A DNA stretch of 51,360 bases, taken from a virus. The notes beneath the pieces are model-generated. The model was not told the DNA's origin. It did no database searches and saw only the letters and a program-made list of their open reading frames with translations. Position numbers and translations under genes: made by a program. The stretch covers positions 1 through 51,360 of the IMG/VR virus record IMGVR_UViG_3300045988_172722; one strand, 5' to 3'. Shown one piece after another: positions 4,431 to 50,709 of the stretch (positions within the stretch are counted from its first letter, which is position 1; each line of letters starts with the position of its first letter).

Positions 4431-5081
4431 ATGGGATTAAATTGTGGATGCCCTGCCGCAGCACATCTTGCTGACCTTGAGATTAATGATTGCAAGGAAA
4501 GTATGGGGCAAATTCAAAAAGTTGCATTCCAGCGTATCTATAAGACTGCTGGAACGTTGAATGCTATTGATGACCCGACTAAGAAAGCATCGTGGAGTAC
4601 TTTGTTTTCTGCAGCCGATGGTACTAAGATGACAGTATCGCCTTATATCCAAGGACCTACTACAGAGCCGGGTGCAGCTCGGACATTCGGTAGCGGTAAT
4701 CAGGTATTGGGCGGTATTCCTATCACGATTGGTCGTGAAGCTACGACTTTCTCTGGTACTATCTATCAGGAAAATCAGAAAGTCATTGCTCAAATGAAGC
4801 AATATCAGTGCGAAAACATCGGTGTTTGGCTGATTGATGAAAATGGTAACATCGGCTGTTTGGTAGATGACCTTGATGATCCTACTAAGTACATGCCTAT
4901 TCCTATCTACAGTTTCTTTGTAGGTGATAAGTCACTTGGCGGATATGAAGAGCCTGACAGCAATGCAATCAGCTGGTCTTTTGTTCCTAACTGGAGTGAT
5001 AAATTCTACATTATCAAGCGTGAAACTTTGGACTTTAATCCTCTCACTGATTGGGTTAACGTAGCTTCCGCTGGAGCTTAA
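4431..5081 (+). CDS. Hypothetical virion protein (function unknown)
   Basis: This is a 216-aa ORF with a normal globular composition and its own promoter-like element, placed between terL and the portal candidate. No motif recognised. Confidence 0.6.
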   Translation: MGLNCGCPAAAHLADLEINDCKESMGQIQKVAFQRIYKTAGTLNAIDDPTKKASWSTLFSAADGTKMTVSPYIQGPTTEPGAARTFGSGNQVLGGIPITIGREATTFSGTIYQENQKVIAQMKQYQCENIGVWLIDENGNIGCLVDDLDDPTKYMPIPIYSFFVGDKSLGGYEEPDSNAISWSFVPNWSDKFYIIKRETLDFNPLTDWVNVASAGA

Positions 5082-5092
5082 AAACTTTCAAT

Positions 5093-5305
5093 ATGAGAAA
5101 GAAAAAAGAACAAATGGTAACGCTGGTTGTGCCTAAGCATAATATCAAGCAAGAGTTCGGTCTTCAGCACGCCGAACGATTGCTTGATATGGGCCCAGCC
5201 CTAAATGGCGGGTGGGAACTACCTCAAGACAGTAACTATCATTACGACGAAGAAAATGGGCTTAGAGTTAAATCAGATAAAGCAAATTCTGCAAAAACCG
5301 TCTAA
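5093..5305 (+). CDS. Small hypothetical protein
   Basis: This is a 70-aa ORF 11 nt after the previous stop. It overlaps the 5' end of the portal candidate ORF. Confidence 0.4.
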   Translation: MRKKKEQMVTLVVPKHNIKQEFGLQHAERLLDMGPALNGGWELPQDSNYHYDEENGLRVKSDKANSAKTV

Positions 5306-6989
5306 AAGACAGGTTATTCAGAAGGCTGTAAATATGCAGCGTCGTCTCCGTTTTCACACTGAGACGAATATCGCTGTATCTGATATTAACCAACCAACAA
5401 CTGTATTTTTAGATTGGGTAAGAAGATTGTTGCCAAAGGATAAATATAACATCTTTTTGCAGCTGTTCAAATTTCCATTGCCCACACCTGCTGTAGTTGA
5501 GGACGTCTATAGAGAGCTCGAAAGAGTTTTCTATAGCCGTAACTCATCTAGCTCATATCAATTCACAGACTCAGAACTTGCTGAAGATTGGTCTCAGTAT
5601 CGTAAGAGTAATCTTAATGAGCCCGAAGTATGGAAAACTACCGCTTGGAAACGAATGCAAGTATCTCCAAACAGTATACTTGTTGTTGACCTTCCGCTAG
5701 TACAAACTTCCACTCGACCTGAGCCATATTTCTATTGGCTTGAAATTGACTCTGTGATTGATTATGAGCTTTCTAAGCAAGATGAGAATTTGTTTAACTG
5801 GCTTATTTTTAATCAACCAGAGCATAGAATAGCAGTATTTGATGATACTAGTATTAGGATTTATCAGCTTAACGAAAAGAATGAAATTCAATCATTAGTT
5901 TCTGAGGCTCAGCATGATTTAGGATATTGCCCTGCAAGATTTTTTTGGTCAGCACAGTTAAATGAGAAAAATAAAGACCTTAAAAAGAATCCAATTACGA
6001 AAGAGCTTTCTAATTTGGATTGGTATTTGTTTTTCTCAATATCTAAACAGCATCTTGACCTTTATGCGCCATATCCTATTTACAGTGCCTATGAGGCTGA
6101 CTGTAATTTTGAGAATAGCGAAACTGGTGATTACTGCGATGGTGGCTTTTTGCGCAATGCTAAAGGAGAGTATAAGATACTTAATGATGGCACCGTGGAA
6201 AAATGCCCTTGCTGTAGTGAAAAAAGAATAGCTGGACCTGGTTCATTCTTAGAGGTACCTATACCTAATCAAACTGAGGGTGTAGTCGATATGCGTAATC
6301 CTGTTCAGATTACTACTATAGATAAAAATTCACTCGACTATAACGTTAACGAGTGTGCAAGGCTTAAAAATGAGATTGTTATTTCTGTAGTCGGTTCTGG
6401 AGGTACTGTAAGTGAAAAAGAAGCTATAAACGAAACACAAGTAACTGCTAATTTTGAAAGTAAGACTTCAGTGCTAAATGCTCTTAAGACCAATTTTGAG
6501 TTAGCACAGAAGTTCATTGAAGATACTGTTTGCAAACTCAGATATGGAAATGCTTTTATATCATCTTCTGTAAATTGGGGTACAGAGTTTTACGTTTTCA
6601 CTGTAACAGAGCTTTACTCTAAGTATAAACAATCGAAGGATAATGGAGCATCCAACTCAGAACTAGATGCTATATCGCAACAAATTCTTGAGGTTGAGTA
6701 TCGCAATAATCCTTTAGTACTTCAGAGAATGCTGATTTTGAAACAGTTAGAGCCTTATCCACATAAAACCCTGGATGAAGTGTTAAAACTGTATGAAAAA
6801 AAGTTAATAGATGAAAAATTGGTAAAACTTAAAATAAATTTTAGTACTTTAGTCGATAAATTTGAACGTGAAAACATTAACATAATTGAGTTTGCTTCAA
6901 ATAAATCGTTAAGAGAAAAAATTGATATAATAACAAATAAACTTTTAGAGTATGTTACAGAAAATGACACTACAGGAACTGCAGAATAG
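5256..6989 (+). CDS. Putative portal protein
   Basis: The call rests on size (~578 aa) and position downstream of terL and upstream of scaffold and capsid. No signature motif recognised. The start is uncertain (5205, 5256 or 5334). Confidence 0.5.
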   Translation: MGLELNQIKQILQKPSKRQVIQKAVNMQRRLRFHTETNIAVSDINQPTTVFLDWVRRLLPKDKYNIFLQLFKFPLPTPAVVEDVYRELERVFYSRNSSSSYQFTDSELAEDWSQYRKSNLNEPEVWKTTAWKRMQVSPNSILVVDLPLVQTSTRPEPYFYWLEIDSVIDYELSKQDENLFNWLIFNQPEHRIAVFDDTSIRIYQLNEKNEIQSLVSEAQHDLGYCPARFFWSAQLNEKNKDLKKNPITKELSNLDWYLFFSISKQHLDLYAPYPIYSAYEADCNFENSETGDYCDGGFLRNAKGEYKILNDGTVEKCPCCSEKRIAGPGSFLEVPIPNQTEGVVDMRNPVQITTIDKNSLDYNVNECARLKNEIVISVVGSGGTVSEKEAINETQVTANFESKTSVLNALKTNFELAQKFIEDTVCKLRYGNAFISSSVNWGTEFYVFTVTELYSKYKQSKDNGASNSELDAISQQILEVEYRNNPLVLQRMLILKQLEPYPHKTLDEVLKLYEKKLIDEKLVKLKINFSTLVDKFERENINIIEFASNKSLREKIDIITNKLLEYVTENDTTGTAE

Positions 6990-32471: not shown

Positions 32472-34445
32472 ATGGTGAAAAATCTTTTTATAGACGTCGA
32501 AACATTCTCCTCAGTAGATATTAAAGAATCTGGCGCATACAAATATATAGAGTCGCCAGACTTTGAGATACTGATTATAGGATATGCATTAGATGATGAG
32601 CCAGTTAACATTGTTGATTTAGCTCAAGGCGAGGAAATGCCTGAGGAGTTTGAAGAAGCGTTACTTGACCCGAAGTGTATAAAAGTTGCTCATAACGCAG
32701 TATTTGAGCGGCTTAGTTTTAAGCGAATAGGTTATAATGTTCCAGCAGAGCAGTGGTATTGTACTTCAGTAAAAGCTGCGTATTGTGGCTTACCACTTTC
32801 ATTGGATGGAGTATCAAAAGCTCTTAATCTTACGGATAAGAAGCTTGATACTGGTAAAGCACTTATTAAGTACTTTTCATGCCCATGTAAAGCAACTCGA
32901 GTTAATGGAATGCGTACACGCAATTATCCAAAACATGCCCCTGAAAAGTGGGAAATGTATAAAGAGTATAATAAATATGATGTCTTGGCTGAGCGTGAGA
33001 TATTTCATAGATTAGAGTCTTATATCATTCCAAAGATTGAGCGAGAAATGTACGTGCTTGACCAGAATATCAATGATAGAGGTATTTTGGTAGATATGGA
33101 GTTAGCAGAGTCTGCTATCACAGTAGATAATACTTATACTTCTATATTAACTCAACATGCTCAGCAGTTAACAGGCCTTGAAAATCCAAATTCGCCTGTA
33201 CAAATTAGGCAATGGATAGAAAAGAAAACAGGTAATGCCATATTGTCACTTTCAAAAGAAACAATGCCTGATTTGCTTAAAGAGTTTGCGGACTATCCAG
33301 ACGTAATTGAGTTGCTCAATATACGCAAAAAACTATCAAAAACTTCAATTAAGAAGTATTATGCTATGCTCAATTGCGCTATGAAAGACCACAGAGTTAG
33401 AGGTACATTCCAATTCTATGGTGCAAATAGAACTGGTAGATGGGCAGGTAGATTATTACAGTTACAGAACTTATCAAAAAACCATATATCGCATATTGAA
33501 GTACCGCGTGAGTTAATCAGAGCCCGTGATTGGGAAACAGTTGAGATGATGTATGATGATGTCGCAGATATTCTTTCACAACTTGTAAGAACAGCGCTTA
33601 TACCTCCGCAGGGTATGAAATACGCCGTAGCAGACTTTTCGGCCATTGAGGCAAGAGTAATATCTTGGCTTGCAGATGAAAAATGGCGATTAGATGTATT
33701 CCACGGTGATGGCAAGATTTATGAAGCAACTGGCGAAAAGATGTTTGGAGTTCCAAAGTCTGAAATTAAAAAAGGCTCAGTACTTCGCGACAAATCGAAA
33801 ATATCTGAATTGGCGCTTGGCTATGAAGGAGGTCTTGGAGCCTTAAAGCGAATGGGAGGCGATAAAATGGGCCTTTCAGATACAGAAATGATGTCACTAG
33901 TGCGTAAATGGCGTATGGCTAATCCATCTATAGTAGATATGTGGAAAGAAATTGATGAAGCTTCTAAAGAAGCTGTACGTTACCATAGAGCTGTTAAATG
34001 CACAAGCAAAAATATCATATTTGATTGCGATGGTGAATTTATGACAATTGAATTGCCAGTAGGTAGAAAGCTATTTTACTACAAACCAGAATTCAAAGAT
34101 AAGTATATAGGACGTTCTACTATGCCTATTCGTAGTCTTTGCTACAAAGGGATTGACCAGACAACCAAACAATGGATAAGCATAGATACCTATGGTGGTA
34201 AGCTGACCGAGAATATAGTTCAAGCAGTATCAAGAGATTTATTAGGCGATGCTATGCTTAGAATGGAAAAAGCCGGATATGGAATCGTTGGTTCAATTCA
34301 TGACGAAGTTATAACGGAAGTTCCGGAAGAGAATGCTCAATTGTGGTATGATAATCTGGTAAAAATCATGTCAACACCTCCTTTGTGGGCGCAGGATTTA
34401 CCCCTTAACGCAGATGGAGGAGTTATGGATTTTTACCAAAAATGA
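32472..34445 (+). CDS. Family A DNA polymerase with a 3'-5' exonuclease domain
   Basis: Exonuclease motifs are FIDVETFS (Exo I) and HNAVFERL (Exo II). Polymerase motifs are A VADFSAIEARV, B RDKSKISELALGYEGG and C GSIHDEVI. Confidence 0.9.
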   Translation: MVKNLFIDVETFSSVDIKESGAYKYIESPDFEILIIGYALDDEPVNIVDLAQGEEMPEEFEEALLDPKCIKVAHNAVFERLSFKRIGYNVPAEQWYCTSVKAAYCGLPLSLDGVSKALNLTDKKLDTGKALIKYFSCPCKATRVNGMRTRNYPKHAPEKWEMYKEYNKYDVLAEREIFHRLESYIIPKIEREMYVLDQNINDRGILVDMELAESAITVDNTYTSILTQHAQQLTGLENPNSPVQIRQWIEKKTGNAILSLSKETMPDLLKEFADYPDVIELLNIRKKLSKTSIKKYYAMLNCAMKDHRVRGTFQFYGANRTGRWAGRLLQLQNLSKNHISHIEVPRELIRARDWETVEMMYDDVADILSQLVRTALIPPQGMKYAVADFSAIEARVISWLADEKWRLDVFHGDGKIYEATGEKMFGVPKSEIKKGSVLRDKSKISELALGYEGGLGALKRMGGDKMGLSDTEMMSLVRKWRMANPSIVDMWKEIDEASKEAVRYHRAVKCTSKNIIFDCDGEFMTIELPVGRKLFYYKPEFKDKYIGRSTMPIRSLCYKGIDQTTKQWISIDTYGGKLTENIVQAVSRDLLGDAMLRMEKAGYGIVGSIHDEVITEVPEENAQLWYDNLVKIMSTPPLWAQDLPLNADGGVMDFYQK

Positions 34446-36960: not shown

Positions 36961-37260
36961 ATGAAGCAGATAGACAGCGAGAAACTAGTAGAACGGAGAT
37001 TAGTGGAGCTCGTCAAAATAAATAATGGCATGTGTATAAAGCTATTATGTGACCAGCTGATAGGTTTACCTGATAGGCTCTGTTTATTTCCTAACCATAA
37101 AATGGCATTTGTGGAAACTAAGACCACAGGTCAAAAGCCAAGACGCATACAAGCCTATATGCACAAAAAGCTTAGAGCTCTTGGCTTCAGAGTCGAAGTA
37201 ATTGACTCAGTTGAAGACGTGATAAATTTCGTAGAAGATATAATGCTAAATAAACAATGA
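36961..37260 (+). CDS. VRR-NUC domain nuclease
   Basis: The PD-(D/E)XK signature is GLPDRLCLFPNHKMAFVETKTTGQKPRRIQ. The 99-aa size is typical. Confidence 0.75.
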   Translation: MKQIDSEKLVERRLVELVKINNGMCIKLLCDQLIGLPDRLCLFPNHKMAFVETKTTGQKPRRIQAYMHKKLRALGFRVEVIDSVEDVINFVEDIMLNKQ

Positions 37261-37697
37261 GGGGCGAAAAGATACTATTAACTTGCGAAAAATGTGGAAA
37301 GCAGTTTATAAGGTATAAATGCTTAATAAAGCCAGGCATTACTCATTTCTTTTGCAGCAGAGCTTGTGCTAAAGAGCATTTAAGTACAAAAATGACTAAG
37401 ATGAATGAGGACTTAAATCCTACTAGAATGGATAACTTTGAAACAAGGTTAGCTGTTAGAGAAGGTCATCTTAGGAATAATACTGGAAAAGAGCATAGCT
37501 ATCCTAAGATATTTGGAACTCATGCACATAGAATACTAGCAGAAGAAATAATAGGAAGACCACTTAAGAAAGGTGAAGTAGTACATCATAAAGATGGTAA
37601 TCCTAGAAATAATTCTATTGATAACTTAGAAGTTTTAAGTTCACAAGCTGAGCACGCAAAACTTCATTGTAAAGATGAAAGGTTTTCAAAATGCTAA
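37257..37697 (+). CDS. HNH endonuclease with an N-terminal Cys-rich (zinc-finger-like) segment
   Basis: The motifs are CEKCGKQF...FCSRAC and VVHHKDGNPRNNSIDNLEVLSSQAEHAKLH. It is inserted between the VRR-NUC and SNF2 genes. Confidence 0.85.
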   Translation: MRGEKILLTCEKCGKQFIRYKCLIKPGITHFFCSRACAKEHLSTKMTKMNEDLNPTRMDNFETRLAVREGHLRNNTGKEHSYPKIFGTHAHRILAEEIIGRPLKKGEVVHHKDGNPRNNSIDNLEVLSSQAEHAKLHCKDERFSKC

Positions 37698-39928: not shown

Positions 39929-40177
39929 ATGGACAAGAAAAGAACATTTCAGCAAATAGCCAGAGACGTAAAGTCAACCTGGATGAATGTATACTTTGGA
40001 GCAGTGCCTTATCTTGAGGCATTATTAACGCTTGATACAACAGACCCAGAGGCTTTATATGGAATTGAGAAAGCTGGAGATATTGCAAGATACTTTTTAG
40101 CTAATGCTCAAACCTTTAGAGGAGCAGATGCAAGAAGATTAAAAGAAGAACTTAAAACTTTGATAAACAATGGCTAA
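39929..40177 (+). CDS. Small hypothetical protein
   Basis: This is an 82-aa ORF, first in the transcription unit. Confidence 0.55.
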   Translation: MDKKRTFQQIARDVKSTWMNVYFGAVPYLEALLTLDTTDPEALYGIEKAGDIARYFLANAQTFRGADARRLKEELKTLINNG

Positions 40178-40460
40178 TATTTTAGAACAAGCAAACAAAA
40201 TCGTAAATGAGCGCTCAGAAGAAAAAGAGCGTCAATATGGACCATTTCAAGCATCGATGGAAAGAGCAGCAGCTTTTTATAATCTGATGTCACCTAAAGA
40301 CCAGCAAATAACAACTGCTGGTATGTATAGAGCCATGATAGCTCTTAAGTTATCACGTGAAGCCTATGCGCACAAAGAGGATAATCTTCTTGATGCAGTA
40401 GCTTATATGGGCTCTATGAATGACTATCTGGAAGAGCATAAAGATATTTTCAATAAATAA
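40170..40460 (+). CDS. Small helical protein common in phage nucleotide-metabolism neighbourhoods (family not confidently named)
   Basis: The ORF is 96 aa. The motif NERSEEKERQYGPF...MIALKLSREAY...DNLLDAVAYMG matches, from memory, a recurring phage domain of unknown function. Confidence 0.55.
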   Translation: MANILEQANKIVNERSEEKERQYGPFQASMERAAAFYNLMSPKDQQITTAGMYRAMIALKLSREAYAHKEDNLLDAVAYMGSMNDYLEEHKDIFNK

Positions 40461-40472
40461 ACAGTTTTAACT

Positions 40473-41294
40473 ATGGTAAAAGTGTATAACACAACAGACC
40501 TCAGACCAGACCAAGCGTTTGAGAAGCACGTATTCCACAGAGACCAGTTTGCGCATTACTTGCGTTGGACACACATTCTCAAAGAAGCAAAAATTGGCGA
40601 GTCAATCGTAGACTTCGGCTGTGGAGCAGCTAATTTGCTTGAAGTATTGTATCGAAACAAGTTCAAGCAGAAAGAGTATATCGGCATTGATATTCGTGAA
40701 AAGACTATCAATGAAGCAGCTGAGAAGTATCAAGATGTGCTTTGGGCTCATTTCTATGTAGCTGACCTTGTGAAACATGATTTGGATTTCAGCAAATTTA
40801 ATGCTGATAAGGTTTGTGCATTTGAAGTGCTTGAGCATGTAGGCAAACAGAATGCAGATGCATTTTTAGAGAACTTTAAGGCTTGTGGTAATAACAATGC
40901 CACTTATTACCTTTCAACTCCTAACTATGACCCAGAAGTAGGAGCAGCAGGTAATCATACCTATGATTCTGGCGATGGTCGTGGAGTTGATGTACAAGAG
41001 TTTGACCACTGGGAGCTTGAAGCTATATTGTCTCAGCACTTTACTATCGTAAAGAAGTTTGGTACATTTGCTTCTATGAAGGACTACAAGCCTCTTATGA
41101 ATGATTGGCAGAAGAAGATGTTCGAGGCTCTTAAGAGTTATTATGACTCAAACCTCATTGCCAATATCATGGCTCCTATGTTTCCTGATGTGGCGCGCAA
41201 CACTCTTTGGGTATTGAAGCGTAAACCTGAAGACATAAAAGCACCTAAAGCTCCAGCAGAACAACCAACTCTATTTGATGACGATTTAATGTAA
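40473..41294 (+). CDS. Class I SAM-dependent methyltransferase (substrate unknown)
   Basis: Motif I is IVDFGCGAANLLE, post-I is YIGIDI, and ADKVCAFEVLEHV follows. There are no DPPY/NPPY or PCQ DNA-methyltransferase motifs. Confidence 0.75.
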   Translation: MVKVYNTTDLRPDQAFEKHVFHRDQFAHYLRWTHILKEAKIGESIVDFGCGAANLLEVLYRNKFKQKEYIGIDIREKTINEAAEKYQDVLWAHFYVADLVKHDLDFSKFNADKVCAFEVLEHVGKQNADAFLENFKACGNNNATYYLSTPNYDPEVGAAGNHTYDSGDGRGVDVQEFDHWELEAILSQHFTIVKKFGTFASMKDYKPLMNDWQKKMFEALKSYYDSNLIANIMAPMFPDVARNTLWVLKRKPEDIKAPKAPAEQPTLFDDDLM

Positions 41295-41300
41295 TAAGAT

Positions 41301-41744
41301 ATGAATATAAAAGAAGCTTTATTCAAACTTGATGATTTTTGCAATGCAAATAAAATCGAGTATACAGTAACAGGCACTGTTGCTTTAGATATACTCGGAG
41401 TTCCATCCAATCCGAATGACATAGATATAAAGGTGTTTCACCTAAAAGAAGAGCAGGAAGCGAAGTTAAAAGAGCTTCAATTCCTGTCAGGCTTTGACAA
41501 AGAGAATTATGAAGATAGTAAGTGTTATTCATTCATGATTGGTGGAACTAAGATAAACGCTCTTGTAGATAATATTGAGTTGTCTCAAGAAGTTACGTTG
41601 AGCATGCTTGATGAAACTTGTGCAAAACGGCGTTCTATATGTGTTCAACTAGTATTTCCTGCTCTTAAAGATAAGATGAAGCTGAAAAGACACAAAGATA
41701 AAACTTATATGTTGAATTTAATTGCTGATTTAGCACAGTTATGA
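41301..41744 (+). CDS. Minimal nucleotidyltransferase-fold protein (Pol-beta superfamily)
   Basis: YTVTGTVALDILGVPSNPNDIDIKVF fits the G[ST]...DxD pattern. The ORF is 147 aa. Confidence 0.55.
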   Translation: MNIKEALFKLDDFCNANKIEYTVTGTVALDILGVPSNPNDIDIKVFHLKEEQEAKLKELQFLSGFDKENYEDSKCYSFMIGGTKINALVDNIELSQEVTLSMLDETCAKRRSICVQLVFPALKDKMKLKRHKDKTYMLNLIADLAQL

Positions 41745-42121
41745 AAAGTTTGATTTCAGTAACTCCTCGAGAGTTTAAGCGTCATTTTGGCGAAGTAATG
41801 GAAATGTGCACAGATATGTGCATGACTACTAATCAGGAAATTGTTATTACAATTCCTGAAAAGAAGAATGGCCAAACTCATACAGAAATAGCCAAAGTTA
41901 CTCCTGTAAACGGTGGCATTAAGTATAACTACAACCATGAGCTTCTTAAAAAGTTTGACATCAATACTCAAAATCCTAAGCTTTCAAAGATTGCAGCTAT
42001 TATGGCTGATGCTCTCGAGCAAGAAAAAGTTTATACAGTAGTAAGTCCTGAAGCTGAGCACAAATTAGCCAGAGCTATGGAAACTGCGGCTAAAGAACTT
42101 GTTAAAACATTCGAATTATGA
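41741..42121 (+). CDS. Hypothetical protein
   Basis: This is a 126-aa ORF overlapping both neighbours by 4 nt (ATGA). Confidence 0.55.
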   Translation: MKSLISVTPREFKRHFGEVMEMCTDMCMTTNQEIVITIPEKKNGQTHTEIAKVTPVNGGIKYNYNHELLKKFDINTQNPKLSKIAAIMADALEQEKVYTVVSPEAEHKLARAMETAAKELVKTFEL

Positions 42122-42612
42122 AATTCTGCAAAGTAAGAAACGTAAAGTCTCCAGTTCGTGGAACTGGTAAAGCCGCTGGAATTGATTTCTTCGTTCCAAA
42201 TTTTGGTGGTAATAAAGGCTTTATAGTCAACCCAGGAACCGATGTTCTTATACCGTCTGGTATTAAGATGGAAATTCCTGAGGGTTATATGCTTATGGCA
42301 GCTGACAAATCAGGTGTAGTAACTTCTAAGTGGGCATGCCTTGGAGCTGGTAGAACACCAAAGGCAGAGGCATTTGAAAGTATTGTTATACTCGGTGCCA
42401 AGATTGTCGATGAAGACTACCAGGGAGAGATACATATCCATATTGTGAATGTCGGTAGAGCTAAAGTTCATATTAAGCCAGGTATAAAGATAGCGCAGTT
42501 TATTCTTGTGCCTGTGTCTTATGAAGGACTTGAAGAAGTACCTGAAGCAGAGCTTTTTAGTCGCTCTTCTGAAAGAGGCGATGGAGCTCTGGGTTCGACT
42601 GGAAGTTATTAA
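42118..42612 (+). CDS. dut: dUTPase-fold nucleotide pyrophosphatase
   Basis: The motifs are AAGIDFFVP (1), ADKSG (2), IVDEDYQGEI (3), KIAQFILV (4) and ERGDGALGSTG (5). There is an insertion of roughly 25 aa (TSKWACLGAGRTPKAEAFESIVILGA) between motifs 2 and 3. Confidence 0.85.
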   Translation: MKFCKVRNVKSPVRGTGKAAGIDFFVPNFGGNKGFIVNPGTDVLIPSGIKMEIPEGYMLMAADKSGVVTSKWACLGAGRTPKAEAFESIVILGAKIVDEDYQGEIHIHIVNVGRAKVHIKPGIKIAQFILVPVSYEGLEEVPEAELFSRSSERGDGALGSTGSY

Positions 42613-42733: not shown

Positions 42734-43189
42734 GTGAAAAAGAAAGCAGTAGAAATACCAGAGATTATTTATACAGACCAGTTTCTCAGATTTGTGGCAG
42801 TTTATGCTAATAAATTTAGAGCAACAAAAGGTTTTGGAAGATGGTTGGCTGAGTATAGGCGAATGGATGAGCAAGGTATGTTTAAGCCTGAGAAGTTAAG
42901 AGAATTATATATCAAAATACTGGATGGTTCAAATACCTTATCATACATATACTGGGAAGCTGTTCATTGTATATGTGTACAAGCACTCGATGCAGCTAAA
43001 GCGTTTGCTTTAACCAATTCATTTGAAATTAGAGTAATAACTGGTGAAATTGCTTTTAATGACGGTGATGAAGAGCTCAAAGATTTATCTATGGAAGAAG
43101 CATTAGCTATATGCAAAGCCATGAACGATGAAGCTGAAGAGCTTTTGTTTAGAGTTTACAACAGCAATACAAATAAACTTGTTAAGTAA
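42734..43189 (+). CDS. Hypothetical protein
   Basis: This is a 151-aa ORF with a GTG start. Confidence 0.5.
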   Translation: MKKKAVEIPEIIYTDQFLRFVAVYANKFRATKGFGRWLAEYRRMDEQGMFKPEKLRELYIKILDGSNTLSYIYWEAVHCICVQALDAAKAFALTNSFEIRVITGEIAFNDGDEELKDLSMEEALAICKAMNDEAEELLFRVYNSNTNKLVK

Positions 43190-43190
43190 T

Positions 43191-43352
43191 ATGGCGACAT
43201 TAGTTGAAGATATTTTTACAGTATATAGTCCTGCTGATTTAGAAGCCGAGATGTGCCGATATAATTGCAAAACTAAAGAAGAACTTGATGAACTTCTTTG
43301 GCATGATTATGGTGTAACTCTAGTGTTAAACTTTGAATATGAAGAAGCATGA
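43191..43352 (+). CDS. Small hypothetical protein
   Basis: ATG 43191 lies 1 nt after the previous stop. The product is 53 aa and overlaps the next gene by 4 nt. Confidence 0.45.
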   Translation: MATLVEDIFTVYSPADLEAEMCRYNCKTKEELDELLWHDYGVTLVLNFEYEEA

Positions 43353-44035
43353 ATATAGCATATAAGAATGCAACTGAGGCTTTTGAGGACCTATATGCTT
43401 TTATTATGGGCCAAGGAATAGATACTAACGTTGGAACAAAGGCCGTTTACAATGTTGGCTTTTATTTACGTAATCCTCAGCAGCGTATTATAACAACAGA
43501 ATGGCGCAAATTCAGCGAACGATATGCTGAGCGTGAATATGCCTGGTATATGTCAGGCGATAGGAGTGTAGCAGAAATTAAAAAGTTTGCTCCTATGTGG
43601 GATAAAATGCATGGAGGCGATAACATAGTCAATTCAAATTATGGTTGGCAATGGACGCGCAATAAGCAATTAGCCAAGTGCATTGAACAGCTCAGAGAAA
43701 ATAAAGATACTCGCCAAGCTTGGTTTACAATCTTTGATGGCAAAGAGAAGGATGACTATAAATATGACACTCCCTGCACTTTGTCTGTAGGTTTTGATAT
43801 TAAGCCGGGCATCGAAACTCTTGATATGTGCGTAACTATGCGAAGCAATGATTTGGTTTACGGTTTTTGCAATGACCAGTATTGCTGGACTAAGCTTCAA
43901 CAGTTAGTAGCCGATGAACTTGGTTTGCCTATAGGTACATATTACCACTTTGCTCATGACCTCCATATATATGAAAGGCATTGGGGCATGAAAGAAAATT
44001 TTTATAAAGAACGACTTAAAAAACTGGAAGAATGA
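43349..44035 (+). CDS. Thymidylate-synthase-fold pyrimidine hydroxymethylase (T4 gp42-like, probably dCMP-specific)
   Basis: The motif order is EYAWYMSGD, VNSNYGWQW, NKDTRQAW, catalytic Cys in DTPCTLSVGF, MRSNDLVYGFCNDQYCW, LHIYERHW. At 228 aa it is too short for ThyA and lacks the PPCH and LGxPFN motifs. It closely parallels my recollection of T4 gp42 (MRSNDVVFGFRNDYAWQ ... LHVYSRHF). Confidence 0.7.
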   Translation: MNIAYKNATEAFEDLYAFIMGQGIDTNVGTKAVYNVGFYLRNPQQRIITTEWRKFSERYAEREYAWYMSGDRSVAEIKKFAPMWDKMHGGDNIVNSNYGWQWTRNKQLAKCIEQLRENKDTRQAWFTIFDGKEKDDYKYDTPCTLSVGFDIKPGIETLDMCVTMRSNDLVYGFCNDQYCWTKLQQLVADELGLPIGTYYHFAHDLHIYERHWGMKENFYKERLKKLEE

Positions 44036-44400
44036 AAGTAGCAGACTTAAAGGTGATTGATGTGATACAAATGCCTCAGTTTGAAAAGCACATTGAGGCT
44101 TGTATAAAAGAGCTATATTTAACTCGTACGAAAATAATGAATGAGCATCCAGGTGTTCAATTCAAAAGAGGTCCTATCGATAGACTTCAGGAAAAGAAAG
44201 TGTTTGGGCCTAAAGCTCTTGCAGTTCTCTATGCTAAAGTAGTTGATAAAACTATAGATATAAATGAATATCCTTCTGTGCTTAGAACTTTTATCAAAGG
44301 AATAGGTGATGAAGCTTTTCATAGAACCTATGTTGAACTAAAACAAGCTGAAGAAGAGCAAGAAGATAAACAACAAGTAGTAAGATATAAAGAAAGATAA
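44032..44400 (+). CDS. Hypothetical protein
   Basis: This is a 122-aa ORF overlapping the hydroxymethylase stop (ATGA). Confidence 0.55.
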   Translation: MKVADLKVIDVIQMPQFEKHIEACIKELYLTRTKIMNEHPGVQFKRGPIDRLQEKKVFGPKALAVLYAKVVDKTIDINEYPSVLRTFIKGIGDEAFHRTYVELKQAEEEQEDKQQVVRYKER

Positions 44401-44405
44401 CTGAT

Positions 44406-44591
44406 ATGAAAAAGATAGCTAAATTCGTATGGAAATGTGTAGGATGGATTTATTTTCCTATATACATATTGTTTTGGATACTGCATAAAGTAGCAAGATT
44501 GGTGTTAGCAATTTCCTATTTTGGAATGCTTGAAAAGACAGTTGGCAAAGATATAATTAAGCATTTGTTTATCTGGCATGGAAAACATTGA
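44406..44591 (+). CDS. Small membrane protein
   Basis: The 61-aa product has hydrophobic segments VGWIYFPIYILFWIL and LVLAISYFGML. Confidence 0.45.
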   Translation: MKKIAKFVWKCVGWIYFPIYILFWILHKVARLVLAISYFGMLEKTVGKDIIKHLFIWHGKH

Positions 44592-45438
44592 AGAAAGATA
44601 TGGTGACTTAACAGATAAGGAATATCTTGAGTTTCTCAGCGAAATAAAAGGTGATGATGAAGAAATTGAGGAAGCTCAAAACGAAGCTATTGAAAAGATA
44701 GAACTTGAAGAAGAGCATACCGAATTATCTGAGTCAGAAGAAAATGCAATGATAGAGGCTTACTATGGAGATGATGCTTGGCGAAAATTCGGTAAGTATT
44801 TCTTCAGTAAGCCTGCTATCATTGAAGCCTATAAAAAAGCACAGAGAACCCGAGAGGCGAAGCGTAGAAAGCTTAAAGAAGATAGAATTGCCATACAGCG
44901 AATGGCTTTTAATCAGGATTATTTACGACTTAGCGACCCTGTAGGAAATGATAATCTTAAGTTGCTTATAACTCTACTTACTGCTGAACATACTAGAATG
45001 GTAGAAAAATATGCAACTTACATAAATAAAAGATTAGCAACTCTTATCAACCCATTAATACCAAGAAGGATTAGGATTTGTAAGATGATATATCCCGAGT
45101 CAATGAAAGAATGCCCTGGTTTTTTATATAAAGCAAGTGAGGAATATGGCGAAGGACAAACATTCTGGGCAATGCCTGATATACCTTATTATTTCAAGCA
45201 GAATACGGAACAAGCAGAGCTGCAAAAGTCAATAAAATATGCAAATTATCTTATAAACATAGATAAGGCTGTCGCGTCTTATAATACGCATAATAAGGTA
45301 AGAGCAGAAAAAGAATTAAAATACGCCTCTATGGTAGTTCGTAAAGGTGTATATTCTTATTTTGACTTGCTTAGGTTAAATCCATTTTGGTTTGAAATAC
45401 TGTTTAATGACTTAAAAAATAAAATTGACAATTTATGA
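44578..45438 (+). CDS. Hypothetical protein with an acidic N-terminus, translationally coupled to the response regulator
   Basis: The ORF is 286 aa. Its stop overlaps the next ATG (ATGA at 45435-45438). No kinase motifs are present. Confidence 0.6.
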   Translation: MENIEERYGDLTDKEYLEFLSEIKGDDEEIEEAQNEAIEKIELEEEHTELSESEENAMIEAYYGDDAWRKFGKYFFSKPAIIEAYKKAQRTREAKRRKLKEDRIAIQRMAFNQDYLRLSDPVGNDNLKLLITLLTAEHTRMVEKYATYINKRLATLINPLIPRRIRICKMIYPESMKECPGFLYKASEEYGEGQTFWAMPDIPYYFKQNTEQAELQKSIKYANYLINIDKAVASYNTHNKVRAEKELKYASMVVRKGVYSYFDLLRLNPFWFEILFNDLKNKIDNL

Positions 45439-46145
45439 AAACTTCTAAAGATGCTATATCGCAACCGAAAATTCTTGTTTATCAAGATGAAGACTGTAGC
45501 ATAATGGTTGATTACCTTATATTCTACGGTTTTGATGTTATAACTTCAAACAAAGAAGATATAATACCAAAGATAAAAGATGGCGGCTATGATTTATGCA
45601 TTTTAAGCCATTATAAATCTATAGATATAGGTAACTTATCTTTGTTGAAAATTCTGCGCAAAGCAGATAAGTCTACACCTGTTATCATGGTTTCTGATTT
45701 GTCAAAATATCAATTCATAATTGAAGCTTATGATGAAGGAGCAGATGACTACGTAGTTAGACCATATAATCTTGAAATACTTGTGCGCAAAATAAATATA
45801 GCTCTTAAAAGGTGCGGCATAAAAACAAGAACAATTCAAAATGCTTATCAATTAGGCAATTACAGATTTGATGTTCTCAACGATACGCTTGCTATAGATA
45901 ATACTGAAATAAAGCTCCCTGCTAAAGAAACTCAATTGCTTGCTTTGCTTTGTGCGTATGAGGGCGAAGTATTGCAAACAAGCGTAATAATGCAAAGACT
46001 ATGGCGAGGAGAAAATAATTATTGGAATAAACGCAGCTTAGATGTAAATATATGCCACTTACGAAATTATCTTAAAATGGATGAGAGAATATCGATTGTA
46101 ACTAAGCGAGCTTTAGGTTATTCTCTCGTTATACGGGAAGAATAA
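45435..46145 (+). CDS. OmpR/PhoB-family response regulator with a degenerate (phosphorylation-incompetent) receiver domain
   Basis: The receiver reads KILVYQDED ... YDLCILSHYKS ... PVIMVSD ... GADDYVVRPY. The winged-helix output reads LPAKETQLLALLCAYEGEVLQTSVIMQRLW...SLDVNICHLRNYL...TKRALGYSLV. Ser replaces the phospho-acceptor Asp (ILS versus LLD) and Arg replaces the conserved Lys (VRPY versus TKPF). Confidence 0.8.
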   Translation: MKTSKDAISQPKILVYQDEDCSIMVDYLIFYGFDVITSNKEDIIPKIKDGGYDLCILSHYKSIDIGNLSLLKILRKADKSTPVIMVSDLSKYQFIIEAYDEGADDYVVRPYNLEILVRKINIALKRCGIKTRTIQNAYQLGNYRFDVLNDTLAIDNTEIKLPAKETQLLALLCAYEGEVLQTSVIMQRLWRGENNYWNKRSLDVNICHLRNYLKMDERISIVTKRALGYSLVIREE

Positions 46146-47599: not shown

Positions 47600-47671
47600 A
47601 ATTATGCATATAGATAAAAAGAGAGAACCGCCTCATGCGAGACGGTCCTCATTGACTGATCGGCTGTGTGG

Positions 47672-48820
47672 TTATGCAAGCGGGTCAGTCTCTTCAGTTG
47701 CCTCAGCGGGAGCTTCGGCTGTCTTTTCTGCTGGAGCCTCGGCAAGACTAGCACCCTGGCCTGCGAGCCATTCGTCCAGCTCCTTGCGAGCATCCTCAAG
47801 CTGCTGCTTTTTAGCTTCCAGCTCTTCAGTTGCTTTCTGCAACTTCTCTTCAGCTTTCTTCAGAGCTTCTTCGCATTTTACGAAACGGTCTTGAGGAGTA
47901 AGCGGCGTGCGAGTAGCAGCGGCCTCACGACGCTCGCAGTATTTCTTGTTGAGCTCTTCGCCTTCAGCGTCAAATTCTTCTGCAATTTCGAGGTCTGCGG
48001 TAATAACCTTATGCATGGTTTTGGTTGCCAGCGGGTTACCCTCAATTGGAGCAGGAACTGAAATGCGGTAAAGAAGTCGCTGAGCGCGCTTGTCGGGCAC
48101 GATAGCCACGATACGGCCTTCGTTGTACTCGATTTTCTCTTCGCCAGTCTCCGGGTCAGTCACGCGATACTTTTCAAATTTAACCGCTTTGCCGACGTTA
48201 CCGATAACTTCATTTACTGCAGTAGCAATTGCTTCTGGTGTCCATTCAACTTTTTCAGCAGCAGGGTCTTTTGCCTTACGACTACCGCAAGCTTTCTTCT
48301 CAACCTCAACGACTTCGTCAAAGATACGAACAAGATTGCTGTCATGTACCTTAACAATGCGGCGTCCATCGTCAGTCTTGATTGCGTAAAGTACCTTATT
48401 GCTGCGCTTCTCCTCAATCACTCCGGCAATATAGCCGTCAACCCATTCTGCAGTGTTGAAAGGAACTGCCTGACAGCGGTGGTTGATGTTTTTCTTCAGC
48501 TCTTCAGCCAGAGTGTGACGCTCTTCGTCCGTCATTTTCGGCTTCTTTTCCTGAGTTGCCTTACTGCCATTATAAAGCGGATTGAGTCCGCCATTCTCTT
48601 CAGCCGCTTTGATGGCTGCTTCTTCTTCGGGAGTGAGCGGAGTTTCCTCTGCTGCAGGTGCTTCAGCGGGTGCTTCGGCTGTTTCTTCAGCCTTAGGTGC
48701 CTGAGCCTGTTCACGAGCTGCAAGTACAGCCTCGATAGCCTTCTTGTCTTCGTCACTTGCTGTTGCCATGAGGGCGTTCAGCTTCTTGGTTGTCATCTGA
48801 GCAAATTTCTTTGTTGTCAT
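47672..48820 (-). CDS. Hypothetical protein with Ala/Glu/Pro-rich termini and two internal beta-rich repeats
   Basis: The ORF is 382 aa and clearly more GC-rich than the rest of the genome. The N-terminal KAEETAEAPAEAPAAEE mirrors the C-terminal AEKTAEAPAEATEE. A C-terminal coiled coil is present (KKAEEKLQKATEELEAKKQQLEDARKELDE). Confidence 0.75.
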   Translation of the reverse strand: MTTKKFAQMTTKKLNALMATASDEDKKAIEAVLAAREQAQAPKAEETAEAPAEAPAAEETPLTPEEEAAIKAAEENGGLNPLYNGSKATQEKKPKMTDEERHTLAEELKKNINHRCQAVPFNTAEWVDGYIAGVIEEKRSNKVLYAIKTDDGRRIVKVHDSNLVRIFDEVVEVEKKACGSRKAKDPAAEKVEWTPEAIATAVNEVIGNVGKAVKFEKYRVTDPETGEEKIEYNEGRIVAIVPDKRAQRLLYRISVPAPIEGNPLATKTMHKVITADLEIAEEFDAEGEELNKKYCERREAAATRTPLTPQDRFVKCEEALKKAEEKLQKATEELEAKKQQLEDARKELDEWLAGQGASLAEAPAEKTAEAPAEATEETDPLA

Positions 48821-49473: not shown

Positions 49474-49710
49474 TTATTTTACGCCCATTTTTGCAGCATA
49501 TTCGTCAATCTGTTCTCTTGTAAGCCATTCCGGCTTGATTGGCAGCAAATCGTAAAGCTCTCGCATTTTATCGATTTGCTTTTGTTCGTCGCGAGCCCAA
49601 AGGCAATGATTTGCATCACGGCCACCATAACCAAGGTAGTACTTACAATCGCAACTAAGACGGCCAAGCAGCATATACTCAAATCTAAAGTCTTTCTGTG
49701 CCATAATCAT
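49474..49710 (-). CDS. Small protein resembling a stand-alone domain of the large polyvalent proteins of conjugative elements and phages (family name uncertain)
   Basis: FEYMLLGRLSCDCKYYLGYGGRDANHCLWARDEQKQIDKMRELYDLLPIKPEWLTREQIDEYAAKM matches, from memory, a recurrent module (xxLLxRLxxDCxYYLGxG...LWA...QIxKMxELYxxLPxKPEWLT). Confidence 0.6.
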   Translation of the reverse strand: MIMAQKDFRFEYMLLGRLSCDCKYYLGYGGRDANHCLWARDEQKQIDKMRELYDLLPIKPEWLTREQIDEYAAKMGVK

Positions 49711-49752
49711 TACGTATAAAGTTGGTTAAATAAAGTCTCTTGCTGAACATTG

Positions 49753-50136
49753 TTATTCCGGTATTACTGTTATTGTCCATTCAAAGCCTATTGTTCTCTC
49801 AAGACGCTCTTGCTCATGCTCCGCTGACTTCTGGCTCTTGCAGATAGTCGGGCAGTAGCCTTTGCGGTATCTCTTGGGCTGCACTTTCCACGTTCTAAGG
49901 TCTGTGCTCTCCTGTAGCATCTGGTGGATATGCTCCGCCCAGAAGCTTCGAGTTGCGCAGTCATCAACACTCTTGCCAGTGCTCTGGAGAACAACGTTCT
50001 CTCGGTCTGTGCTGTCAATCTCGGCACGGTCACCATATCGGTCATAAGTTACCTGGCAACCCAGTTCCGCGGCCTTGTCAATTAAGGCTTTCCACTGTTT
50101 GTCGGAATATTCATTCCGGTAATAAGTCTTTTTCAT
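49753..50136 (-). CDS. Hypothetical protein
   Basis: This is a 127-aa GC-rich ORF. Confidence 0.6.
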   Translation of the reverse strand: MKKTYYRNEYSDKQWKALIDKAAELGCQVTYDRYGDRAEIDSTDRENVVLQSTGKSVDDCATRSFWAEHIHQMLQESTDLRTWKVQPKRYRKGYCPTICKSQKSAEHEQERLERTIGFEWTITVIPE

Positions 50137-50165
50137 ATCAATACTGTTTTATCGTTATACATTAG

Positions 50166-50220
50166 TGCCCTCCAGCAGAGTCGAACTGCTGCCTCCTGTT
50201 GGGAGCTCTCCCGAGAGGGC
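50166..50220 (-). other. 55-nt tRNA-like minihelix (acceptor stem plus T arm, no anticodon arm)
   Basis: The minus strand reads GCCCTCT-CGGGAGAGCTCCCAACAGGAGGC-AGCAG-TTCGACT-CTGCT-GGAGGGC-A. The 7-bp acceptor pairing has one G-U pair. The T arm is canonical with a TTCGACT loop. The internal part is far too short for D and anticodon arms. Confidence 0.5.
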
Positions 50221-50221
50221 T

Positions 50222-50245
50222 AAATATCCGCATTAGCGGATATTT
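50222..50245 (-). terminator. Perfect 10-bp hairpin overlapping the stop of the 50233-50589 gene
   Basis: The sequence is AAATATCCGC-ATTA-GCGGATATTT. No clear U-tract follows on the minus strand, so a terminator function is uncertain. Confidence 0.35.
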
Positions 50246-50589
50246 ATGCCGTTTTCGTCCACGGTAATTACCTCGATAAGCATTGCGGCTCCGTCGATGA
50301 GCTGCTCCTCGGTGATTTTCTTGCCGTCCTCTTCGCGCTCTGTTACCACCTTCTTCGGTTTATTTTCCTTGTAGATACAGTACGTGTGAGCGTAATATTC
50401 ACCGAGTGTGCCCCGTTTTTCGGCGTCTTTGATACACTCTATAATATTTTTCTCAGCATAGTAGTGGCATTCGCTGGCAAACAGTCTCTCGCCGGATACG
50501 GCGCAGTTGTCAATTCGGATTTCTCCCGCTGCGATTTGGTCACTGTCCAGAACTGTCAGGACAAAACGATAATTTCTGTTTACTTTCAT
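50233..50589 (-). CDS. Hypothetical protein
   Basis: This is a 118-aa GC-rich ORF and the first gene downstream of promoter cassette copy 3. Confidence 0.6.
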   Translation of the reverse strand: MKVNRNYRFVLTVLDSDQIAAGEIRIDNCAVSGERLFASECHYYAEKNIIECIKDAEKRGTLGEYYAHTYCIYKENKPKKVVTEREEDGKKITEEQLIDGAAMLIEVITVDENGINIR

Positions 50590-50709
50590 TGCTGTAATGT
50601 TTTACTGTTATTACTTATTTTACCTATACAAATATACTAATTATATTTGAACCGGAAAAACTTTGAGCGACTTTTTGTGTTAAATTTTGTTTGTAACTTC
50701 GAGTTGTAT

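Follow-up and report, generated by a model that had tools for sequence, protein, structure and literature searches.

The virus record IMGVR_UViG_3300045988_172722 of IMG/VR was analyzed over its full length of 51,360 nucleotides (hereafter, the window) in order to assess a gene on the forward strand at positions 43349-44035, which begins with ATG and encodes a 228-aa protein of the thymidylate synthase (TS) fold. Judged from its diagnostic residues and relatives, this TS-like protein is, with a probability of roughly 0.8, a folate-dependent deoxycytidylate (dCMP) 5-hydroxymethylase, that is, a predicted 5-hydroxymethyl-dCMP (5hmdCMP) synthase functionally equivalent to gp42 of phage T4. A T4 gp42-like enzyme leading to 5-hydroxymethylcytosine (5hmC) had been proposed at this locus from the bare sequence (the original prediction), and that proposal is now supported by Asp at the position of residue 177 of Escherichia coli ThyA, an acidic residue at 143, Asp at 169, a residue other than His at 147, and the ranking of solved structures. 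Because an identical TS-like protein occurs on 51.4 kb human gut metagenome contigs, the window is taken to be essentially the whole ~51 kb genome of a human-gut Bacteroidota siphovirus, in which the gene sits within the replication and nucleotide-metabolism module.

Every motif listed in the original prediction was recovered in the open reading frame (ORF). A Pfam match to PF00303 (Thymidylat_synt, E = 2.5e-23), together with the equivalents of Cys146, Arg126, Arg166, Ser167, Tyr94 and Glu58, places the protein in the thymidylate synthase superfamily. PHROGs families labeled "thymidylate synthase" match it at up to 5.7e-44, and all NCBIfam ThyA equivalog cutoffs lie far above its score, the best being 71 bits against a cutoff of 327. 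When the Protein Data Bank (PDB) was searched with phmmer, the best solved structures were the MilA CMP 5-hydroxymethylase (2.1e-16) and the T4 deoxycytidylate hydroxymethylase (9.4e-16), whereas the best genuine ThyA reached 1e-10, 5-6 orders of magnitude behind, and most ThyA entries 1e-5 or weaker; the comparison sides with the hydroxymethylases. In length the protein falls 36 aa short of E. coli ThyA, close to the 40 aa estimated earlier, with 23 residues after the equivalent of His207 against 57 in ThyA. As had been noted, ThyA-specific strings are absent, with "YDTPCT" in place of "LAPCH" and "YGFCND" in place of "LGLPFN". The protein carries neither the Asn177, Leu143, His147 and full C-terminal lid of genuine ThyA nor an equivalog-level score.

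Diagnostic positions are given here in E. coli ThyA numbering, in the order 143/146/147/169/177, and the rules for reading them were calibrated in our own alignments on enzymes with known products; the numbering of the E. coli ThyA sequence was self-validated by C146, R166, Y94, R126 and H207 falling in invariant columns. The window protein reads D/C/T/D/D, a pattern identical to that of T4 gp42, which produces 5-hydroxymethyl-dCMP. In the same alignments ThyA reads L/C/H/D/N, the 5-hydroxymethyl-dUMP-producing SPO1 gp29 reads D/C/N/D/N, and the 5-hydroxy-dCMP synthase RB69 gp48 reads E/C/T/N/D. The corresponding residues of the window protein are Asp140 (codon 43766-43768), the nucleophile Cys143 (43775-43777), Thr144 (43778-43780), Asp168 (43850-43852) and Asp176 (43874-43876), with Glu63 (43535-43537) equivalent to ThyA Glu58. 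The Asp opposite ThyA Asn177 and T4 Asp179, earlier aligned by eye, was returned consistently in three independent alignments, by phmmer against PDB 1b49 (in which "CND" of the window protein aligns to "RND" of T4), by MAFFT with the reference enzymes and by BLASTP; inspection of the discriminating residue therefore gives Asp. The features of the T4 gp42 type, Asp177, an acidic 143 and a retained Asp169, were accordingly all found, and the context of residue 169 is "RSND" in both the window protein and T4, with "RSQN" in RB69 gp48 in one alignment.

These positions have been linked to function in previous studies. C146 is the nucleophile, the N177D substitution makes dCMP the substrate instead of dUMP, a bulky Leu143 keeps water out so that a methyl product forms, Asp or Glu at 143 marks hydroxymethylating homologs, and D169N marks flavin/O2-dependent 5-hydroxy-dCMP synthases (Lee et al., 2026; PMC13326640). 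Positions 177 and 147 were those most strongly associated with experimentally cytosine-modified viral contigs, with a residue other than His at 147 linked to such contigs (Yang et al., 2021; PMC8670742). In the 201 clade members compared (120 database homologs and 80 viral loci), E58, W80, Y94, R126, C146, R166, S167, D169, D177 and Y209 were invariant, D143 was present in 201/201 and T147 in 200/201, and the motif "YDTPC" places the Asp three residues ahead of the catalytic Cys.

The genomic surroundings of the gene point in the same direction. In a survey of 62 diverse viral contigs with enough flanking DNA, whose TS-like proteins are 50-83% identical to that of the window, gene order around the TS-like gene was conserved and a slot upstream of the dUTPase varied. 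The neighborhood of the TS-like gene held a methyltransferase with a 5-hmdU-DNA-kinase-like protein of family PF18723 and dUTPase in 16 contigs, a methyltransferase with or without dUTPase or dCMP deaminase in 12, a carbamoyltransferase with AAA_28, a second TS paralog and dUTPase in 14, a partial carbamoyltransferase set in three, homologs of the T4 alpha/beta-glucosyltransferases in four, dCMP deaminase with or without dUTPase and nothing else in three, and nothing recognizable in 10. In total, a methyltransferase lies near the TS-like gene in 28/62 contigs, a carbamoyltransferase in 17/62, an HMUDK-like kinase in 16/62 and T4-type glucosyltransferase homologs in 4/62, and for three of these four partner kinds the characterized homologs act on a 5-hydroxymethyl group. 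One phage enzyme of the carbamoyltransferase type, found together with a TS homolog on a modified sewage contig, converts 5hmdC to 5-carbamoyloxymethylcytosine in experiments and does not act on 5hmdU or 5mdC; the two kinds of gene, carbamoyltransferase and TS homolog, occurred together exclusively on contigs with enrichment for modified cytosine, and contigs with both survived a MetaGPA selection that needs modified cytosines irrespective of sequence context (PMC8670742). With the carbamoyltransferases of the clade likened by type to that enzyme, the slot argues strongly, if indirectly, that the clade's enzyme would make 5hmC and that this base would reach DNA.

Two of the slot components merit description in their own right. 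The full-length kinase-like protein matches PF18723 (HMUDK_hel) at E = 1.4e-48 (for example at 4471-5472 (+) of locus L009), and in all 16 of its loci in the survey (L173-L252) it is accompanied by the methyltransferase; its position beside a cytosine-type D177 TS homolog suggests either that this kinase family also acts on 5hmC in DNA or that 5-hydroxymethyluracil (5hmU) arises by an unseen route. The second TS paralog of the metagenomic loci L007 and L008 (5336-6154 (+)) reads "RSSN...D", that is, D169N with D177, the signature of the O2/flavin-dependent 5-hydroxy-dCMP synthases that yield 5-hydroxycytosine (5hoC), and such a signature is unexpected in phages of strict anaerobes; the equivalent paralog of the cultured phage BF486P2 (BF486P2_00027, L001 9168-9929) reads "RSSD...D". 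In the window itself, a tblastn self-search for a second TS paralog of the BF486P2 kind returned none.

In the window the slot holds a class I S-adenosylmethionine (SAM)-dependent methyltransferase of 273 aa (40473-41294, +), with the SAM motif "VDFGCG". This METHYLTRANSFERASE partner lies outside the gene with which the original prediction was concerned, and we regard it as a candidate decorating enzyme on account of its conserved linkage to D177 TS homologs. Close relatives with enough flanking DNA carried the methyltransferase in 62/62 cases, all from one genus-level cluster and hence not independent. Distant homologs with 26-31% identity over more than 90% coverage, sharing the invariant residues E118, E121 and H122 (within "FEVLEH") and N161 and H162, were found in Stenotrophomonas phage AXL3, Pseudoxanthomonas phage PW916 and freshwater viral genomes. 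Both AXL3 and the freshwater podovirus ct3Et533 present the order methyltransferase, NTP pyrophosphohydrolase, kinase, TS homolog, dCMP deaminase.

When IMG/VR was scanned with a profile as seed, 80 diverse methyltransferase-bearing loci were recovered (L093-L172; further methyltransferase coordinates are L011 6962-7786 for AXL3_31 and L012 6983-7879). Of these, 76/80 have a co-directional TS-like ORF downstream, no more than 3.5 kb from where the methyltransferase starts, and in all 76 a full-length TS-like ORF carries C146, T147, D169 and D177. Among the 80 loci, an NTP pyrophosphatase (NTP-PPase) of the PRA-PH/MazG type was present in 69, a kinase in 53 and a deaminase in 69, and the cassette can be read as the nucleotide enzymes of T4 with a methyltransferase in the position of the glucosyltransferases.

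With regard to the chemistry of the methyltransferase, its best profile matches in the PDB were HEN1 (3HTX, 1.9e-11) and Hen1 (3JWI/3JWG, 1e-10), followed by UbiG, and the family-invariant "FEVLEH" and "STPN" align to "LEVIEH" and "STPN" of HEN1. In the HEN1 structure the E-x-x-E-H motif reportedly provides three of the four ligands of the Mg2+ that activates the acceptor hydroxyl. A putative Hen1-type metal site would comprise E118, E121 and H122, which lie in the stretch aligned to HEN1, and the distal H162, all four being invariant in the phage family. A Foldseek search with a model of the methyltransferase at a predicted local distance difference test (pLDDT) score of 85 returned generic class I N-, C- and O-methyltransferases at a template-modeling (TM) score of ~0.5, with Hen1 outside the top 50. 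By profile, then, the nearest characterized relatives of the methyltransferase appear to be O-methyltransferases of the Hen1 type, which modify the 2'-hydroxyl of RNA 3'-terminal ribose; unlike them, the window enzyme has no Pnkp/ligase partner and no dsRNA-binding domains, and its genomic partner is a predicted dCMP hydroxymethylase rather than RNA repair.

Tentatively, and with the odds leaning against it, this phage-specific family might be a dedicated partner of D177 dCMP hydroxymethylases that methylates the 5-hydroxymethyl group, at the nucleotide stage or within DNA, and thereby produces 5-methoxymethylcytosine or a different methylated form of 5hmC. Searches of the literature, with incomplete coverage, found no methyltransferase partner of dCMP hydroxymethylases, no methoxymethyl pyrimidine in phage or other natural DNA, no report joining Hen1 with 5hmC and no paper on phages of the BF486P2 type. 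AXL3 DNA resisted all 35 tested restriction enzymes with G or C in their sites and was cut only by TasI (AATT) and Tru1I (TTAA), and its TS homolog was read as an ordinary thymidylate synthase (PMC7504290). If true, methylated 5hmC would explain this resistance at G/C-containing sites, and the modification would be widespread, extending from gut Bacteroidota phages to many environmental phage lineages.

Following the established chemistry of the family, we propose that Cys143 of the TS-like protein would attack C6 of dCMP while Asp176 would read and protonate the N3/N4 face of cytosine, and that the methylene group of 5,10-methylene-tetrahydrofolate, its pterin held by Asp168, would be transferred to C5. 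With Asp140 in place of the water-excluding Leu143, and with the C-terminal lid missing, the exocyclic methylene intermediate would be hydrated rather than reduced, giving 5-hydroxymethyl-dCMP as the product. Host kinases would then convert 5hmdCMP to the triphosphate 5hmdCTP, a step ascribed to the host because the phage encodes no recognizable kinase. The phage family A DNA polymerase (32472-34445, +) is the candidate enzyme that would need to accept 5hmdCTP, and its incorporation would yield virion DNA in which 5hmC replaces at least part of the cytosine; since a recognizable dCTPase is absent, this replacement may be incomplete. The base would probably be derivatized further, with the SAM methyltransferase at 40473-41294 as the leading candidate for the decorating step and O-methylation of the hydroxymethyl group as the simplest chemistry that would fit its relatives.

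Several observations weigh against the assignment of a dCMP hydroxymethylase serving DNA modification, some at the level of the pathway and others at the level of the base. With respect to the pathway, the ~70 ORFs of the genome, compared with PHROGs, Pfam and NCBIfam and scanned for Walker-A motifs, include no recognizable dNMP kinase, glycosyltransferase or dCTPase of the MazG type, so that the absence of these partners reported in the original prediction holds genome-wide, and no dCMP-supplying enzyme was recognizable in the genome-wide scan. Full replacement in T4 requires gp1 and gp56. The T4 set for complete replacement by 5hmC, comprising the gp56 dCTPase, the gp1 dNMP kinase and a glucosyltransferase, is thus not encoded in the window, and this lack of nucleotide-level partners is the main weakness of the inference that the DNA is modified. 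Nucleotide-level steps after hydroxymethylation must therefore use host enzymes or unrecognized proteins. The earlier suggestion that these steps are carried out by unrecognized genes of the same block stands in part: a conserved SAM methyltransferase partner has been identified there, but the block yields no candidate kinase or dCTPase, the DUF6378 protein described below having been rejected as a MazG-type enzyme. Candidate P-loop kinases were likewise rejected, as the genome holds only two Walker-A-like strings, one in a 262-aa ORF (1215-2003) without a match to any kinase family and one a chance match inside the amidase.

Palindrome avoidance in the window also speaks against a fully protective modification. 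Under a maximal-order Markov model, GATC occurs 11 times against 106 expected, CATATG once against 16, GATATC twice against 22 and GAATTC five times against 17, and CCGG, GCGC, GGCC and CGCG are close to expectation. Since site avoidance is retained, the modification, if any, must be partial or not protective against every host restriction system.

These pathway-level observations are shared by the alternative that survives best, although we consider it rather unlikely, namely that the protein is a dCMP hydroxymethylase with a minor or conditional product, such that 5hmC replaces little or no virion cytosine and the methyltransferase acts on something unrelated, for instance RNA or a small molecule. 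In addition to the missing kinase and dCTPase, the strong residual site avoidance suggests continuing exposure to restriction-modification systems, and Foldseek places the methyltransferase among generic class I enzymes only. Against this alternative, the catalytic sites of the gene are invariant across hundreds of phage genomes, the clade is flanked by four kinds of partner, three of which have characterized homologs acting on the 5-hydroxymethyl group of bases in DNA or dNTPs, the MetaGPA contigs with TS and carbamoyltransferase genes survived selection for modified cytosine, and the methyltransferase family is tied to D177 TS homologs in 76/80 diverse contigs.

At the level of the base, the window protein might instead be a dUMP hydroxymethylase of the SPO1 gp29 type producing 5-hydroxymethyluracil, fed by dUTPase and, in relatives, processed by a 5-hmdU DNA kinase. 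A dUTPase-family gene, a supplier of dUMP, is conserved beside the TS-like gene and fits a uracil pathway better, and the strong PF18723 match in 16/62 relatives belongs to a family named for 5-hmdU. Furthermore, BLASTP gives 25% identity and 2e-18 for SPO1 gp29, about equal to the 30% and 1e-19 for T4 gp42, and overall similarity cannot part dCMP from dUMP hydroxymethylases, so the base call draws on residues 177 and 147 and on context. Since similarity does not discriminate, the original prediction was correct to focus on the one residue that reads the base, and the protein passes this test: residue 177 is Asp in 201/201 clade members, where SPO1 gp29 and its type combine Asn177 with an acidic 143, and residue 147 is Thr as in T4 rather than the Asn of SPO1. 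N177D and D179N are moreover cited as classical specificity switches (PMC8670742), and the clade also pairs with carbamoyltransferase-type genes and homologs of T4-type glucosyltransferases, the characterized phage carbamoyltransferase being specific for 5hmC. We therefore consider a uracil-reading enzyme improbable; the original choice of 5hmC over 5hmU was right by residue 177, a point on which similarity by itself was undecided.

Slightly less probable again is a dCMP methyltransferase like the one reported for Xanthomonas phage XP12, which would produce 5-methyl-dCMP and 5-methylcytosine in DNA. Asp177 specifies only cytosine, and ThyA N177D mutants do make 5-methyl-dCMP (PMC8670742). Asp143, however, is the hydroxymethylating signature and is present in 201/201 members, although the rule for position 143 was calibrated without the XP12 enzyme. 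The C-terminal segment, which in ThyA closes over the cofactor for hydride transfer, is truncated in the TS-like protein, and the carbamoyltransferase, glucosyltransferase and kinase partners of relatives need a hydroxyl acceptor.

A flavin/O2-dependent 5-hydroxy-dCMP synthase of the RB69 gp48 type, with 5hoC as the handle for decoration, appears very improbable. An acidic 143, T147 and D177 are common to RB69 gp48 and the window protein, a distant tblastn match (28%) links the latter to the TS homolog of the 5hoC-producing Rhizobium phage RL38J1, and the second TS paralog of some relatives (L007 5336-6154) bears D169N. The synthases of the RB69 gp48 and DLP3 gp80 type combine Asn169 with Asp177, whereas residue 169 of the window protein is Asp and D169 is invariant in 201 relatives; these enzymes also need molecular oxygen (PMC13326640), which we infer to be implausible in strictly anaerobic gut Bacteroidales. 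Lastly, an ordinary ThyA supplying dTMP, as public sources and PHROGs label the family, can be dismissed in view of N177D, L143D, H147T, the missing ThyA C-terminus and the 71 bits scored against an equivalog cutoff of 327.

The predicted dCMP hydroxymethylase of the window can be compared with several known systems. It resembles T4 gp42 (PDB 1B49/1B5E) in fold, in the residues D143/C146/T147/D169/D177 (D145, C148 and D179 of T4 among them), in the catalytic set E58, Y94, R126 and R166, in its short C-terminus and in its phage replication-module context. It differs in that gp42 is surrounded by the gp56 dCTPase, the gp1 dNMP kinase and the alpha/beta-glucosyltransferases, none of which is in the window, and in that T4 is a T-even myovirus whereas the window is the ~51 kb genome of a siphovirus of anaerobic Bacteroidota. 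SPO1 gp29 shares the TS fold, an acidic 143 and D169 as a folate-dependent hydroxymethylating enzyme, but unlike the window protein it has N177 and N147, which read uracil, and a C-terminal extension of ~150 aa.

The closest cultured genomes are those of the Bacteroides fragilis sewage phages BF486P2/P3, BF494P1 and BF503P1/P2/P4 (OP172667-72), with 61% identity in the TS-like protein and 73% in the portal protein, and with the same order of PolA, primase-helicase, SNF2 helicase, slot, dUTPase and TS-like gene; the orthologous gene of these phages is already labeled "deoxycytidylate 5-hydroxymethyltransferase" in GenBank. The slot of BF486P2-like metagenomic contigs is filled by a carbamoyltransferase, an AAA_28 P-loop protein and a second TS paralog, and BF486P2 itself has size-matched slot ORFs and an annotated second TS paralog, unlike the window with its single TS gene and SAM methyltransferase. 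The gp27-gp31 cluster of Stenotrophomonas phage AXL3 encodes, in order, a dCMP deaminase, a TS homolog, a "thymidylate kinase," an NTP pyrophosphohydrolase and a methyltransferase. The AXL3 methyltransferase is homologous to that of the window (26% identity, 93% coverage) and likewise clusters with a D143/C146/T147/D169/D177 TS homolog, but AXL3 carries the complete T4-like nucleotide set (MazG/PRA-PH-type NTP-PPase, kinase and deaminase) and belongs to an unrelated lineage with a proteobacterial host.

The remaining genes of the operon were examined individually. The trimeric dUTPase-family protein (42118-42612, +, 164 aa) shows all five motifs in recognizable form with an insertion of ~17 aa between motifs II and III, and most relatives keep its gene as a neighbor of the TS-like gene; the protein is probably a genuine dUTPase. 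A role as dCTPase, although conceivable, finds no support. A T4 gp56-like dCTPase hidden in this gene was considered and rejected, as BLASTP against T4 gp56 gave no alignment, and gp56 is of the dimeric-dUTPase, all-alpha type (PF08761) whereas the window protein is a trimeric dUTPase. The all-alpha DUF6378 protein (40170-40460, +, 96 aa), identified by a family match, lies beside the TS-like gene in most relatives that lack a carbamoyltransferase. It was rejected as a cryptic MazG-like NTP pyrophosphatase, given that phmmer and profile searches against the PDB returned no match, hhalign against a MazG/PRA-PH profile (AXL3-type clusters with T4 and RB69 gp56) gave a probability of 0.5%, and the best PDB match found by Foldseek for a confident AlphaFold2 model (pLDDT 92) had an E-value of 1.5, that is, no similarity to a solved structure. 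The sole matches in BFVD were further DUF6378 proteins, drawn from a broad range of phage groups that includes mycobacteriophages; the domain occurs widely among phages infecting Actinobacteria, Proteobacteria and Bacteroidota, at times as part of a fusion with another domain.

Between the methyltransferase and the dUTPase, in the variable slot, lie two ORFs on the forward strand without a family match (41301-41744, 147 aa; 41741-42121, 126 aa). A 151-aa ORF (42734-43189, +) is kept in 62/62 close relatives, and a small ORF (43191-43352, +; 53 aa by the gene call of the source contig) lies directly upstream of the TS-like gene and overlaps its start; neither has a family match. Downstream, a co-directional block (44032-46145, +) encodes proteins of 122, 61 and 286 aa of unknown function and then a response-regulator-like protein; it is translationally coupled to the TS-like gene by overlapping stop and start codons. 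Most relatives keep the OmpR-type response-regulator-like protein (45435-46145, +; REC and Trans_reg_C, phrog_731) downstream of the TS-like gene. Visual inspection finds "DLCILS" at the place of the phospho-acceptor Asp and Arg ("RP") instead of the conserved Lys, and this product may be a transcription factor of the phage with a pseudo-receiver that works without phosphorylation.

Examination of the genome as a whole bears out the assignment to a Bacteroidota siphovirus. The portal protein matched cultured-phage records whose hosts were Bacteroidota in 75/75 cases, B. fragilis phages being the best at 73%, and the genome-wide scan found terminase, portal and head proteins and a 1312-aa tape-measure protein, with no sheath match among the window ORFs. 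A holin and an amidase are also encoded. The replication module comprises an exonuclease, a gp2.5-like single-stranded DNA-binding protein, the family A polymerase, a primase-helicase, endonuclease VII, an HNH endonuclease and an SNF2-type helicase, followed by the DUF6378 protein, the SAM methyltransferase, two ORFs without a match, the dUTPase-family protein, two further such ORFs, the TS-like gene, another three and the response-regulator-like protein. With the stretch from 36 to 51 kb as megablast query against cultured phages, the sole match was a faecal contig that lacks annotation. A further seeded scan brought back mostly contigs resembling the window. Homing-endonuclease-like ORFs of the HNH/NUMOD type flank the terminase gene (2012-2563, phrog_99; 421-1212, with weak NUMOD/HNH matches), and another (37257-37697) lies inside the replication module in the region 36961-37697. 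Two GC-rich islands (47600-48600 and 49600-50600) with a GC content of 0.46-0.52, against a genome mean of 0.36, occur in the leftward-transcribed block of minus-strand genes, and one of them contains a gene for a 382-aa acidic protein rich in Ala, Glu and Pro (47672-48820, -) without a family match.

Part of this picture is already known, in that the function can be predicted from published rules, cultured relatives carry the annotation, and MetaGPA tied similar genes to modified cytosine. To this the present work adds that the newly described 5hoC chemistry appears excluded for the TS-like protein by its residues, that one predicted hydroxymethylase core is combined with interchangeable decorating cassettes in gut Bacteroidota siphoviruses, and that a methyltransferase family is consistently paired with D177 TS homologs across unrelated phages and may mark an undescribed cytosine derivative.

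If the assignment is true, an abundant group of human-gut Bacteroidota siphoviruses, with relatives in hundreds of ~50 kb gut virome contigs, carries hydroxymethylated cytosine that is probably decorated further. Sequencing of these phages would be affected through bisulfite or enzymatic conversion, nanopore basecalling and tagmentation bias, as would cloning and engineering, given that Cas9 and restriction enzymes are sensitive to such bases. The group would also provide a natural comparison, with one hydroxymethylase core beside a swappable methyltransferase, carbamoyltransferase type, HMUDK-like kinase or glucosyltransferase, and two systems that can be cultured, Stenotrophomonas phage AXL3 and the relatives among B. 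fragilis phages, would allow a possible new DNA base to be tested directly. For the biology of these viruses in the gut, the finding would bear on which host defenses matter, for example type IV restriction enzymes.

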